In this document: positions 5,136 to 57,310 of the stretch, in pieces
Position numbering within the stretch: position 1 is the first letter of the stretch
Layout: each line of letters begins with the position of its first letter
Assembly: GCA_903892515.1 (NCBI GenBank)
Contig: CAITIS010000067.1
Coordinates: 65,347 to 129,346 of the forward strand
DNA from: an uncultured Planctomycetota bacterium
GTDB taxonomy: Bacteria > Planctomycetota > Phycisphaerae > SM23-33
Reading direction: 5' to 3'
DNA length: 64,000 bases
The notes under the pieces: model-generated
The model's database searches: none
Told to the model about the DNA's origin: nothing
What the model saw: only the letters and a program-made list of their open reading frames with translations
Program-made: the position numbers and the translations under genes

Positions 5136-5263
5136 ATTTCCAGTAAAGTTGCGGACTGGCGGACGTGCGACTGCGAGCGAAGCGCCCCCAATGCAAAGGC
5201 CGCAAATCCGCGGATCGCAAACTCGAGCGAGTTCGCGAATCGGCGGATTCGCGGCCTGGGTGT

Positions 5264-5689: not shown

Positions 5690-5962
5690 TCAGTCTAAGT
5701 GAGCCACCGAATTGACGGTCCCTATGGGACTGATCGCAAAGCTGCTGTTGTCGGGGTCCACGACCCACCGGCCATCCAGCAGGAACTTATACTCATACAC
5801 CCCCGCCGAAACCGGCAGGACCGCCTCCAGAGTGCCGTCGGCCTTTTTCTGCATCGCCACAGGTTTCCAGTTCGTAAAGTCGCCGGCGATGAAACCTTCC
5901 CTCACCTGCGCTCGCAGGGCGAAGCTGACTTTCCTGGCACGAGAATCCTTCTTCTTGTACAT
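5690..5962 (-). CDS. standalone CBM48 / AMPK-beta-type glycogen-binding domain protein (paralog)
   Basis: 90 aa. KVSFALRA..GDFTNW..YEYKFLLDGRW. Tandem with the 5264..5647 gene. Confidence 0.65.
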   Translation of the reverse strand: MYKKKDSRARKVSFALRAQVREGFIAGDFTNWKPVAMQKKADGTLEAVLPVSAGVYEYKFLLDGRWVVDPDNSSFAISPIGTVNSVAHLD

Positions 5963-11009: not shown

Positions 11010-11228
11010 TACAGAGCAGGCGAGCAGCAGAACAGGTGAGCAGGCGAGAAGACTGACCGCTCGCCTGCGGTCGCCTGTTCACCTGCTCACGACTCACAGA
11101 ATCGACGGTGACGAATATCACTGCGTCACCTTCGGTGAACGCACCGGGCCAGCGAGCGATTGAGTCGATGAACACACGACCAGTGGCCGGTGAAACTCCG
11201 GCCCACGCCCGCAGCCGGCCTGCGGGTT

Positions 11229-13962
<2,734 letters not shown>

Positions 13963-14198
13963 CGATTCCCTTTCCTGGTCGGAGGTCAATTGCCCCGCCA
14001 CTGTATGGCCCGCGACGGGTTCTCGTCAAGCCGATGTGGAGTGGCATCCACATTCCCTGCCTCCCGAACAAATCTCTCGACAGCCGCGTGGTAACAAAGT
14101 ATTGATGGGCGCCAAAGTCGCAAATCCGCCGGGGACTGGGCGTTGACACGAATGATTGCCTTTGCTAAGATTTGGTGCTTTTAACGAAGAGGTTCGCT

Positions 14199-14582
14199 AT
14201 GGCTGGAAAGCTTGAAGGAAAGAAGATTCTGCTGGTTGACGATGATCAGGACATTCTGGCGTCGCTGCAGATGGCGTTGGCCGACACCGGTGCGACGATC
14301 CAAACCGCCAGCGATGGCAATACCGCCGTCGAAATGGCCCAGACCTTCCAGCCTGACCTGATGGTGCTGGACCTGATGATGCCCAAGCGAAGCGGCTTTT
14401 TGGTCTTGGACACCATCAAGAAGGGCAAGAAGAAGGGCGATGCTCCCAGGGTGATTATGATCACCGGCAACACGGGCATGCGGCACCGGGCGTACGCCGA
14501 GAGCCTGGGCGTCAGCAAGTACTTCAATAAGCCCTTCCGCATGGACCGGATGGTCGAGTCAGTGATGGGATTGCTGTCTTAG
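14199..14582 (+). CDS. single-domain response regulator (CheY-like receiver)
   Basis: KKILLVDDD ... DLMVLDLMMP ... K receiver motifs. GAAGAGG SD-like purine-rich sequence ends 8 nt upstream of the ATG. Confidence 0.8.
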   Translation: MAGKLEGKKILLVDDDQDILASLQMALADTGATIQTASDGNTAVEMAQTFQPDLMVLDLMMPKRSGFLVLDTIKKGKKKGDAPRVIMITGNTGMRHRAYAESLGVSKYFNKPFRMDRMVESVMGLLS

Positions 14583-40011: not shown

Positions 40012-40962
40012 TCATTGCGGCCTCTCCCGCAACTTCACGCCCATCGCCCAGGCCCCAAGCACGCCGACGCAGGCCGGGAGCAGCAGCACGATCAAGGCGT
40101 TAGTCAGGTACGCCGCCAGCACCATCGACGGCGTGAACCCGAACGCCCCGAAGACCCCCACCGCCACCGTCTCGCGCACGCCGAAGCCGCCGGGCGTAGC
40201 CGGGATGAGGTTATTGAGCATGACCACCGGCGTCAGGGCTGAGGCCATCAGCAGCCCGATGGGCCCGAAGGCGCGCAGGCAGAGATAGACGGTCAGCACA
40301 CTGAGAACTTCGGCCAGGATCGAAGTGGCCAGGAACACGCCAAATGGCCACCATGGCAGCGTGATTTCCGCCAGTTGCTTGGCCTTGCCTGGCAGCAGGC
40401 GGGTAAACAAGCCCCACAGTCGAGCAGGCCGATAGTGCAGCAGCAGCGGAAAAGCCAGGGCCAGACACAGCAGCACAGGACAGGCGACCAGAGCGGCCGG
40501 TGGGATCTGCGAGCCGCCGAGTTTCACGTCGGCCGTCACGAGATACACCAGCCCCAGCAGGCACAGCAGCAGCACGCCAGCCAGGTCGAAGAGCCGTTCG
40601 ACCACGACCCACCCCGCCAGTTTGAGCCGCACGCCCTTGGGCACGAACATCGGCCTGACGACTTCCCCGCCGCGAAACGGCGTGGCCAGCCCCACGCCCA
40701 AGCCCGCCAGCATGGAAACCCACGCCTGCCGCCAGAGGATGGGCTGCCCCTCCAGCCCGGTCATCCAGCGCCACCGCGCCACCCGCACCGTCCAGTACGC
40801 CAGAGCCAATACGACGGCTCCCAGGAGATGCCCTGCGCTGGCGTGGCGAACCTCGGCGGCCAAGCTGGACCACTGCTGATGGCTCAGCAAATACGCCAAC
40901 AGCCCCGCGGCCAGTGCCAGCGAGAGCCCCTGCAAAATCCACGCTTTCAGACGAGACGGCAT
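40012..40962 (-). CDS. flippase-like / UPF0104 (lysyl-PG-synthase TM-region) family membrane protein
   Basis: ~316 aa with ~8 hydrophobic helices. Start at MPSRLKAW. Stop overlaps the YdjC start (ATGA). Same operon as the GT2 gene. Confidence 0.55.
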   Translation of the reverse strand: MPSRLKAWILQGLSLALAAGLLAYLLSHQQWSSLAAEVRHASAGHLLGAVVLALAYWTVRVARWRWMTGLEGQPILWRQAWVSMLAGLGVGLATPFRGGEVVRPMFVPKGVRLKLAGWVVVERLFDLAGVLLLCLLGLVYLVTADVKLGGSQIPPAALVACPVLLCLALAFPLLLHYRPARLWGLFTRLLPGKAKQLAEITLPWWPFGVFLATSILAEVLSVLTVYLCLRAFGPIGLLMASALTPVVMLNNLIPATPGGFGVRETVAVGVFGAFGFTPSMVLAAYLTNALIVLLLPACVGVLGAWAMGVKLRERPQ

Positions 40963-41034
40963 GAGGGGACAGCGTAGTCGATTTCGCCCCCTGGGGAAAG
41001 CGACTGATGCGCTGCATGACCGGGTTGTGCCTAA

Positions 41035-41292
41035 TACTACAACGCTACGAATGGAGCTTTGATAATTCGCCTGGCTTGGAGGCCCGGAGGGCCGAAACGA
41101 TTGTAGCCGTGGGCGTAAGCCCACGGAGACCGCCCCAGTGGCAAAGAGCCCCGGCGGGGCGACAGAGTCGTTGGACAAGCCAACGGTGTCGCCCCTTCGG
41201 GGCTCAGGCACAAGCCCATGCATACCGGGGGCTTACGCCCCCGGCTACAGTAGTACCGACCCTTCGGGTCTGAATTTCGTAGCGTTGTAGTA
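41035..41292. repeat. 258-bp structured element bounded by 17-bp perfect inverted repeats (TACTACAACGCTACGAA), MITE-like or structured RNA
   Basis: IR-L 41035..41051, IR-R 41276..41292. Nested internal inverted repeats (GGCGTAAGCCC/GGGCTTACGCC, GGGGCGAC/GTCGCCCC, CCCTTCGGG). Confidence 0.55.
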
Positions 41293-41539
41293 CTAACTGC
41301 GTCATCTGCAAATGGCGACTACTTCTCTGCAGGCAGTTGCGAATTGCGACGCAGAGAAACGGAGAGGCAGAGAAGGGCCGAGAATATTCAAGGGAATAAG
41401 GCGGAAGTCTCTCAATGGCTCCCCGAATCAGTTCTTCTCACAGTGCCTTTCTTCTCTGAGCCTCTCGACCTCTGCGTCGAATGCTGCCTGCTCTTCAAAG
41501 AGGTTCCCGCCAGAGAAGACAAGCGCGCCCAATCCCCCA

Positions 41540-42607
41540 CTAGCTCCACGGGGTCCGCTTCTTGATGACCTTCTTATCGCGGAAGTACTTCACGCGCTTG
41601 TAGTGGTCCTGCACGTTCGTCAGCAGCGGGTTGGTCTCATTCATGTCCTGGCCGGTGATCATGGTCAGCAACTCGGAGAACTCCTTCTCCGCCCGCAGCC
41701 AATCCTGGTCCTTTTCCAGCAGGTACGCATTGCGGTACTGTTCGCTGACCCGCTGCGTGACCTTTTCCAGCACCTGCTGGTACATGCGGTCATTTTCCGG
41801 ATCGGCAAAGAAGTTCCTGCCGCTGTACGCGTAGGCCTCCTTAAAGGCCTCCAGCACGCGGTAAAGGTGCGGCGAATCCAGCCCGTACTGCTGGTAGAGC
41901 CCCAGGGCGTAGTGCAGGCGATCTTCCATCAGCACCGGATTGACCGCCCGAACAGGCCGGGTCTCCAACGCTTTGGCGATGTCAGAACGCGAAAGTTCCG
42001 GCGGAATGGGCATTTCGTTCTCGTGCCGGCTGCTCAAGCCGGAGAGAAACAAGAACAGCAGCACCATCGCGGCCATGTATACGCCCAGGATGATCAGCAG
42101 CTTCTTTCGCCGCGAACTCTTGGGCACCGTCAACTTGTCCTGCAGGCCGACGCCGACGGCCTTGATGGCATTGCGACCTTCCGAGAGGGCAGGCAGCGTT
42201 TTGCCGGCATCAGGCTGGACCTTCTTGACGGTCTGGCCAAAGGCGTTGCGGCGTTTGTCGGGCTTCAACATGGCGGCCACGGCCTGCTCAACATCATCGC
42301 CGACGGCCACGAAGAGCAACTCGGTCTCGCGACCCACGCCGATGAGGTCGCCCGTATCCAAAAGCACGCTCTTGCCGCTTTTATACTTCCGGCCGTTGAT
42401 CCACGTGCCCAGGGCTGAAATGTTTTCGATGACCAGGCCGTCATCCACCCGGCGAAATCGAGCATGCTCGCGAGAAATGTACTGCTCGCTCAGAGACACA
42501 TTGGCCTCGGCAGAGCGGCCCAACAGCATGAGCGGGTCGGTCAGGATGACCCGCTTGCCGGCCTGGGGGCCCGCGAGAAACACAAGTTCGGCGTAAGTTT
42601 GACTCAT
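41540..42607 (-). CDS. FHA-domain protein with central TM helix (Tad/Kil-locus associated)
   Basis: N-terminal FHA (LLGRS..NVSLSEQYISREHARF ... NISALGTWINGRK). TM segment LLIILGVYMAAMVLLFLFLSGL. Confidence 0.75.
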   Translation of the reverse strand: MSQTYAELVFLAGPQAGKRVILTDPLMLLGRSAEANVSLSEQYISREHARFRRVDDGLVIENISALGTWINGRKYKSGKSVLLDTGDLIGVGRETELLFVAVGDDVEQAVAAMLKPDKRRNAFGQTVKKVQPDAGKTLPALSEGRNAIKAVGVGLQDKLTVPKSSRRKKLLIILGVYMAAMVLLFLFLSGLSSRHENEMPIPPELSRSDIAKALETRPVRAVNPVLMEDRLHYALGLYQQYGLDSPHLYRVLEAFKEAYAYSGRNFFADPENDRMYQQVLEKVTQRVSEQYRNAYLLEKDQDWLRAEKEFSELLTMITGQDMNETNPLLTNVQDHYKRVKYFRDKKVIKKRTPWS

Positions 42608-47262: not shown

Positions 47263-47399
47263 CGTCTTCCTCGACCTCGTTTCGCCGCGTGACACGGGCG
47301 TCTCGCCCGTGCGTGTCACGGCCGTCTCGGCCGTGTTTCCTTCAGAACCATGGGCGAGACGCCCATGACACACATGGCCGAGACGGCCATGTCACATTC

Positions 47400-57221: not shown

Positions 57222-57310
57222 GGAGAGGTGTCCGAGTGGCCGAAGGAGCCGGTTTCGAAAACCGGTGTACACCCAACGGTGTACCGTGGGTTCGAATCCC
57301 ACCCTCTCCG
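57222..57310 (+). tRNA. tRNA-Ser (anticodon CGA), type II with long variable arm
   Basis: GGAGAGG acceptor, D-arm, anticodon stem CCGGT/ACCGG with loop TTCGAAA, long variable arm, T-arm GGGTTCGAATCCC. Acceptor 3' strand CCTCTCC pairs with the 5' end. Confidence 0.85.

Follow-up and report, generated by a model that had tools for sequence, protein, structure and literature searches.

The closest described relatives of the element reported here belong to three separate groups. Acido-Lenti-1 (Rfam RF01687) was described from 89 copies, was rated a probable RNA on covariation and was left with its function unassigned (Weinberg et al. 2010, PMC2864571). About 70 of the copies are in Lentisphaera araneosa, often in same-strand arrays, and 12 in Koribacter; others are in Rhodopirellula baltica, Geobacter uraniireducens and metagenomes, and the motif has been reported near group II introns (PMC2864571). 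The superfamily of GTAG-tagged REPs, defined as 'GTAG + palindrome' (Di Nocera et al. 2013, PMC3733652), includes families from R. baltica, G. uraniireducens and the PVC superphylum. Its members form tags-outside (HH) dimers with conserved structured spacers of 20-100 bp and with G-T pairs in the stems, and REP dimers nested in outer palindromes are documented (PMC3733652). Insertion sequences of the IS701 family are 1400-1550 bp long, carry the end signature YACT-Y--YR and produce a direct repeat of exactly 4 bp (De Palmenaer et al. 2008, PMC2266710). No description of the present element was found in the literature on IS701 MITEs in Planctomycetes.

The element occupies 258 bp of a 64-kb stretch of DNA (hereafter the window) from a planctomycete of the Phycisphaerae. 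Its ends are those of an IS701-family insertion sequence, and its interior holds an inverted pair of Acido-Lenti-1 motifs. It is very probably a MITE of the IS701 family flanked by a CTAA target duplication.

Anatomy and genomic setting of the element

The preliminary description had assigned 17-bp perfect terminal inverted repeats (TIRs) to the element, and both ends were confirmed with 0 mismatches. The 17-mer TACTACAACGCTACGAA and its exact reverse complement (Table 1) are the only two matches to this sequence in the 64-kb window at ≤3 mismatches, where 0.04 are expected from shuffled sequences. An inverted-repeat search stretched the ends to 41032-41051 and 41276-41295 (20 nt, 95%) because of the CTAA duplication at 41031-41034 and 41293-41296. 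The nested interior stems noted earlier were all recovered by this search, together with further stems. The interior includes two 8-bp stems with 100% complementarity (41107-41114/41119-41126 and 41225-41232/41237-41244), a 19-nt stem with 89% complementarity (41146-41164/41187-41205), and an inverted repeat of 47 nt and 81% (41080-41126/41225-41271). No ORF with coding support lies inside the 258 bp; the ORFs that overlap it are spurious only.

Table 1. Features of the 258-bp element and its borders, with positions in the window
Feature	Position	Strand	Remarks
Target-site duplication, left copy, CTAA	41031-41034		Identical to 41293-41296; fits the YTAR flanks
Left TIR, TACTACAACGCTACGAA	41035-41051	+	Same as the TIRs of 1.55-kb IS701-family elements (L035, L094, others)
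Subterminal spacer, TIR to core	41052-41079		28 nt; unique
Acido-Lenti-1, reverse copy	41080-41126	-	RF01687, 41.2 bits; gathering score 37
Small hairpin of reverse copy	41081-41093		Followed by the linker
GTAG tag of reverse copy	41103-41106
8-bp hairpin of reverse copy	41107-41126
Left inner spacer	41127-41145		Not complementary to the right inner spacer
Central hairpin, AGCCCCGGCGGGGCGACAGA ... TGTCGCCCCTTCGGGGCT	41146-41205		19-nt arms, 89%
Right inner spacer	41206-41224
Acido-Lenti-1, forward copy	41225-41271	+	RF01687, 42.9 bits; gathering score 37
8-bp hairpin of forward copy	41225-41244
CTAC tag of forward copy	41245-41248		Followed by the linker
Small hairpin of forward copy	41258-41270
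Junction GAAT, core to right TIR	41272-41275		4 nt
Right TIR, TTCGTAGCGTTGTAGTA on + strand	41276-41292	-
Target-site duplication, right copy, CTAA	41293-41296
Outer flanks of the element			...GTGCCTAA on one side, CTGCGTC... on the other

Folding had been proposed as a check, and a 268-nt stretch gave structure far above chance, with -162 kcal/mol (z = -10.7) for the plus strand and -154 kcal/mol (z = -10.5) for the minus strand. As the sequence is a near-palindrome of which both strands fold equally well, the fold energy cannot assign a strand.

The core of the element, 192 bp at 41080-41271, consists of two RF01687 matches in inverted orientation around a central hairpin. The Rfam scan that had been called for thus returned two matches above the gathering score. 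It had also been cautioned that a known family might explain the element fully; a family is indeed matched, but the two matches cover only 94 of the 258 bp and the family is itself one without a known function.

The reported intergenic position between an envelope operon and a Tad/Kil-like cluster holds, with a gap of 577 bp (40963-41539). One side of it is formed by the stop (41540) of an FHA-domain gene that closes a T2SSE/T2SSF cluster, and the other by the start (40962) of an LPG_synthase_TM/YdjC/glycosyltransferase cluster. All genes of both clusters are on the minus strand, and the distance from the element is 73 bp to the LPG_synthase_TM gene, which follows it downstream, and 248 bp to the FHA gene upstream of it. 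The consequence of the insertion here is that 258 bp of very stable hairpin-forming DNA were put upstream of the LPG_synthase_TM gene. Neither a sigma-70-like promoter nor an intrinsic terminator (hairpin plus T-run) was found in 40800-41700, and tblastn revealed no IS701 transposase in the 64-kb window. The named best matches of the chorismate synthase of the window, at 77-83% identity, are all from Phycisphaerae or Planctomycetota, and the flanking FHA protein shares 45% identity with its closest homologue. Contigs that encode the exact flanking proteins either carry the element or break within it, and none presents an empty site.

Other structured sequences were seen in the window. Between the element and the stop of the FHA gene, a second imperfect palindrome at 41347-41479 (29-nt arms, 72% complementary, 75 nt apart) folds with z = -2.8 on one strand and -3.4 on the other. 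It occurs once in the window and may represent either a further decayed repeat or the region in which the upstream operon terminates. Long GC-rich hairpins at 5201-5253, 11020-11090 and 47313-47395 (-46 to -55 kcal/mol for 76-103 nt) matched unrelated miRNA-precursor models on both strands, far under the thresholds; bidirectional terminators or intergenic palindromic elements are their probable identity. A tRNA of 89 nt, whose variable arm is long, is located at 57222-57310 (Rfam tRNA, 56.5 bits).

IS701-type ends, target duplication and a second copy

A scan that used one genome per species found the 17-mer in 92 stretches of species-representative genomes. Some of these are due to chance and lie scattered within genes from unrelated phyla. 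Genuine matches are concentrated in Planctomycetota MAGs (Phycisphaerae, Planctomycetaceae), where many are at contig ends and up to ~11 contigs per MAG are involved, which is the signature of a dispersed repeat. The 4 nt outside the 17-mer are nearly always cTAg, tTAa, cTAa or tTAg.

Complete elements were found by pairing forward and reverse copies of the 17-mer. Six full-length elements of 1547-1553 bp (L035, L094, L011, L039, L071 and L080) have TIRs identical to those of the window. The one in L035 (318-1864, 1547 bp, TTAA on both sides) encodes a protein of 486 aa, which scores 325 bits (cutoff 150) against NCBIfam NF033540, 'IS701 family transposase', and matches Pfam DDE_5 with E = 2.3e-66; a transposase of this type is present in 15 loci. 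The end sequence TACTACAACG agrees with the IS701 end signature YACT-Y--YR at 7/7 defined positions, and both the IS size (1547 bp) and the 4-bp direct repeat are within the published features of the family (PMC2266710).

The same 17-mer bounds eight short elements of 201-375 bp from the same phylum, which represent five unrelated interior families. All nine short elements with both TIRs, i.e. the one in the window and those in L026, L074, L036, L069, L083, L077, L029 and L041, have identical 4-bp flanks on the two sides: TTAA, CTAA, CTAA, TTAG, CTAG, TTAG, CTAT and TTAA, plus CTAA in the window. Eight of the nine follow YTAR, a term taken from the flanks observed here and not from the literature; the exception is L029 with CTAT. 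When the full-length IS are counted in, the flanks match in 10 of the 14 scorable elements, all non-matching ones being full-length copies, and a binomial estimate for this proportion is ~3e-4 under p = 0.25, the value for a shared YTAR consensus only. Since Y and R vary between copies and agree within a copy, the tetranucleotide is a duplication and not a part of the element. The element is thus short (<~600 bp) and non-coding, with the TIRs of an autonomous IS and a target-site duplication (TSD) of the length typical of the family, as in MITEs.

Two side observations concern these relatives. Four of the six full-length IS701 copies have non-matching 4-bp flanks (L011, L025, L039 and L094) versus 9/9 MITEs with matching ones, which suggests recombination between IS copies after insertion. 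The MAG JACRIL01 contains at least 11 copies of MITEs that are 350-375 bp long and share the 17-bp TIR (L008, L029, L033, L037, L041, L042, L047, L055, L056, L085 and L086). A variant among them (L037, L055, L085 and L086) diverges after ~65 nt into a different, unassembled interior, always at a contig end, and may be a longer element with the same TIR.

The metagenome contig L001 carries the element unchanged. A further contig, L002, is 100% identical to L001 over 2.9 kb and the first 50 nt of the element; beyond these, the body is ~91-93% identical, and between L001 5758 and 5954, where the alignment ends, the two differ by 17 substitutions and a single 1-base indel. The diverged stretch takes in the 28-nt spacer, and on its far side a decayed TIR (TTCGTGCGGTTTGCC...) is followed by unrelated DNA. 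The L002 contig may represent a real rearrangement or an assembly chimera; either structure requires a second, diverged composite copy in that population. Of the proposed check on copy number and TSDs, the TSD was thus found and a diverged copy came to light through L002, while within the 64-kb window the element is single-copy. Two independent assemblies, from ERZ1426681 and ERZ1426824, end or begin within 2 nt of the centre of the palindrome (L001 ~5858-5860; window ~41141-41143). Assemblies of long inverted repeats typically break in this way, an artefact through which elements of this kind can go unnoticed in MAGs.

The earlier suggestion of a non-autonomous transposable element is therefore borne out by IS701-identical TIRs, the 4-bp TSD and the diverged second copy. 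For its movement we infer mobilisation in trans and the following order of events. A transposase from a full-length copy elsewhere in the genome would bind the ends of the element and transfer the segment to a YTAR target (here CTAA) that had been cut with a 4-bp stagger; once the stagger was repaired, CTAA would be present on both sides.

The Acido-Lenti-1 dimer in other genomes

The core is not confined to the window. In the planctomycete MAG contig L047, the segment 3378-3565 is homologous to the whole of 41080-41271 (78% column identity); the homology stops exactly at the outer small hairpins, and IS701 ends are absent. The blocks common to the two, GTAGCCG ... GGCGACAGA ... CGGCTAC, served as the pattern of a metagenome scan, which gave 57 loci including ~30 true units of the same architecture (27 distinct in the alignment). 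The GGCGACAGA block of the central hairpin, found independently in L047, is a fixed part of the pattern and hence present in the metagenome units by design. No IS701 TIR occurs within 120 nt of these units, even at 4 mismatches.

Each unit begins with the small hairpin, the linker, GTAG, the 8-bp hairpin, a spacer of 20-30 nt, AGCCCCnnnGGGGCGACAGA and the loop, and continues with TCTGTCGCCCCnnnGGGGCT, a spacer, the 8-bp hairpin, CTAC, the linker and the small hairpin. The stems covary between units (CCGTGGGC, CCGGGGGC, CCGAGGGC, CCGGGGAC, CCGGTGGT and others). Within the window, compensated changes distinguish one arm from the other (CCGTGGGC/GCCCACGG versus CCGGGGGC/GCCCCCGG, and GGCCC/GGGCC versus GACCC/GGGTC); they keep the local hairpins and break the pairing of arm to arm. 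Complementarity of the linkers of the two arms is 0.67 within units versus 0.54 between units, and that of the inner spacers is 0.42 within versus 0.43 between elements. With linkers that tend to be complementary and inner spacers that are not, the unit is an inverted dimer with a unique spacer rather than a simple perfect palindrome. The 28-nt spacer of the window, 41052-41079, is not conserved in L047, which lacks TIRs, and is conserved with substitutions in the L002 copy.

Neither a TSD nor a common flank was seen in the bare dimers, all of which are intergenic by a crude analysis. A bias in their gene context (6 convergent, 6 tandem, 4 divergent) is not claimed, as these counts come from a crude GC3-based ORF caller that mis-called the flank of the window. 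No further Acido-Lenti-1 copy is present in the 64-kb window even at E ≤ 5, and related dimers are multi-copy in wetland metagenomes.

A second MITE family with the IS701 TIR, that of JACRIL01 (L029 4114-4463 and L041 1754-2128), also contains Acido-Lenti-1 motifs at gathering level, as a pair with the tags inside in L029 and as one arm only above the threshold in L041. In the wetland metagenomes Ga0316620 and Ga0316628, a composite of ~330 bp was observed in ten copies with different flanks (L096, L099, L101, L111, L112, L115, L118, L121, L124 and L148). There the dimer is placed asymmetrically inside an outer inverted repeat of 20-30 nt, ...CCGAGGCTGTCTCAAAAC / GTTTTGAGACAGCCTCGG..., and an extra hairpin occupies the loop of the left 8-bp hairpin; neither a transposase nor a TSD was identified for the ten copies. 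The IS701 MITEs and the wetland composite together indicate that outer inverted repeats have come to enclose the hairpin module repeatedly, the IS701 packaging being the only case with an identified transposase and TSD.

Arrays were met as well. The dimer at L113 621-808 is flanked on both sides by inverted arrays of the octamer repeat GGATCGAG, and in L134, from 3287 onward, another dimer precedes tandem repeats of the small accessory hairpin with a period of ~34 nt. The hairpin modules also amplify locally, like the Lentisphaera arrays of the Rfam seed. Integron attC sites and CRISPR-like arrays were considered because of these same-strand Lentisphaera arrays (69-200-nt spacing) and the reported vicinity of group II introns, and were set aside for the present element: no GTTRRRY/RYYYAAC core was found by eye, and the 46-nt units are the repeats and not the spacers.

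A search with E. coli RayT (tblastn) gave no credible match in the window (best E = 9.7) and a single one among all loci, in L100 (Pfam Y1_Tnp, 26 bits). The L100 gene, at 13388-14270, encodes a 245-aa IS200-like tyrosine transposase with HYH and YxHxNP motifs and is 'TIRYT'-like. It has perfect 60-nt inverted repeats unrelated to the Acido-Lenti-1 motif and lies ~770 nt from the dimer. A solo copy of the 60-nt repeat occurs in a different metagenome (L125 110-165), 40 nt from a dimer. We regard this association with Y1_Tnp as a lead, not a test.

Interpretation and comparison with known systems

The identification as an IS701-family MITE has to accommodate an interior of separate origin. The body is unrelated to the IS interior, and derivation of the body from an IS by deletion was rejected, since blastn of the MITE families against the IS ends revealed the TIR only in common. 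A likeness of the 28-nt spacer to the IS subterminal sequence (AGCTTTGATAAT vs AGCTCAAGATA) is weak and not convincing, and no claim is made of it. The module exists alone, without IS701 ends, in many other bacteria; it is thus either carried as cargo or the result of nested insertion, and the dimer may have come to its place by capture or by inserting into a mini-MITE. Two further points count against a MITE. As the body occurs elsewhere without TIRs, these could have been acquired in situ, with no transposition of the whole unit, and the visible TIR of the L002 copy is degenerate in a contig that may be chimeric.

If instead the mobile or functional unit were the inner 192-bp REP dimer, it would be a REPIN-like element moved as single-stranded hairpin DNA by an HUH tyrosine transposase (RAYT/TIRYT), and the IS701 ends would be incidental, e.g. 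left over from an IS701 or mini-MITE that had received the dimer. We consider this unlikely, although several observations agree with it. Besides the unit of L047, about 30 of the 57 metagenome matches are dimers free of IS701 TIRs, and their lack of a TSD or common flank is what HUH-type movement predicts. The GTAG-tagged 8-bp hairpins, head-to-head around a conserved structured spacer, have the GTAG-REP HH architecture, for which nesting of dimers in outer palindromes is on record (PMC3733652); the Y1_Tnp gene and the solo TIR near the dimers of L100 and L125 may be added. However, no tyrosine transposase flanked by the motif was found, the TIRs of the L100 gene are unrelated to it, and the window holds no other Acido-Lenti-1 copy at the permissive threshold given above. 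The perfect 17/17 TIRs with the matching CTAA mark the outermost event as an IS701-type insertion of the whole unit, and the L002 copy, which retains the 28-nt spacer and part of the TIR, indicates that the composite was copied as one piece.

The preliminary description had also suggested a structured ncRNA or a regulatory RNA. A structured ncRNA gene, or a part of one, with functional Acido-Lenti-1 domains and the 17-bp 'TIRs' as its closing helix is a very unlikely explanation. The two matches over the gathering score, the extreme fold (z about -10.7), the compensated changes that keep each local hairpin and the published rating of the motif as a probable RNA on covariation (PMC2864571) all speak for an RNA, but such covariation is equally expected of single-stranded DNA substrates, and the two strands fold equally well. 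The conserved features are two-fold symmetric, so that one copy of the motif would always be antisense in any transcript. Moreover, what is proposed as a closing helix is known as the TIR of an IS that encodes a transposase, has a TSD next to it and is absent from all homologous units elsewhere, and no sigma-70-like promoter or intrinsic terminator accompanies it. An immobile chance or local palindrome, e.g. a bidirectional terminator or attenuator between operons, would suit the intergenic site between two same-strand clusters and the abundance of GC-rich hairpins. It is extremely improbable given the 0.04 chance matches expected for the 17-mer, the recurrence of the ends as IS or MITE ends in many genomes, the homology of the core to units in unrelated contexts and the lack of a detectable hairpin-plus-T-run terminator.

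In annotation of the genome, the IS701 MITE should be entered as mobile DNA of an ordinary kind and not as a gene for an sRNA. As judged from the sequences compared here, Acido-Lenti-1 appears to behave like a dispersed, GTAG-tagged REP-like DNA repeat that forms inverted dimers and can ride between transposon ends. Such behaviour would be a testable explanation for the patchy multi-phylum distribution of RF01687 and is of concern to RNA-family curation, as the family has been without an assigned function since 2010 and is yet cited in genome papers as a possible regulator. A wider generalisation is tentative and rather doubtful: the Acido-Lenti-1 'sRNA' might be the arm of a ~190-bp REPIN-like mobile DNA module, spread over Planctomycetota, Acidobacteria, Lentisphaerae and other soil and aquatic bacteria and hitch-hiking in MITEs of unrelated DDE transposons, with IS701 ends as the carrier here and a different 20-30-nt outer inverted repeat in the wetland family. 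If true, one non-coding element would be mobilisable by two mechanistically different transposase classes. The element also bears on the earlier reports of REP dimers inside outer palindromes. What is added is modest, namely the reinterpretation of RF01687 as a REP-like repeat able to ride in MITEs.

Compared with IS701-type MITEs (PMC2266710), the element has the identical 17-bp TIR, agreement with YACT-Y--YR, the 4-bp TSD, a length of 258 bp with no ORF, and sibling families with the same TIR (201-375 bp) in the same phylum. It differs in that its body is an independent palindromic module instead of an IS deletion derivative, and in that all copies found of the cognate transposase are from other Planctomycetota genomes.

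With RF01687, both arms of the core share the 8-bp hairpin with a 4-nt loop, the GGCUA box, the 12-13-nt linker and the 5-bp hairpin. Whereas Rfam models a single 46-nt 'sRNA' from Acidobacteria and Lentisphaerae, the host of the window is a planctomycete of the Phycisphaerae, and the motif is present as an inverted pair around a conserved central hairpin between transposon ends.

Each unit of the window core differs from GTAG-REPs and REPINs in having a second hairpin and an additional linker, which is conserved. A RAYT bordered by the Acido-Lenti-1 motif did not turn up in the window or the loci searched, and many members of the wider Acido-Lenti-1 seed have NTAG or NCAG as the tag, not GTAG. 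Typical REPINs are shorter than the ~190-bp dimer. Read on the opposite strand, Acido-Lenti-1 is nonetheless 'GTAG + palindrome', the very definition of the superfamily. Shared with GTAG-REPs and REPINs (PMC3733652; Bertels & Rainey 2011 as cited there) are the 8-bp GC-rich stem-loop with an unpaired GTAG, the two inverted units with tags outside and a conserved structured spacer of ~98 nt, the covarying stems and the occasional nesting of dimers in outer palindromes. By these features of its sequence, with a stem in the range of 6-13 bp, an unpaired GTAG and an inverted dimer that can fold into a single hairpin, the window core is structurally classed as a GTAG-REP HH dimer.
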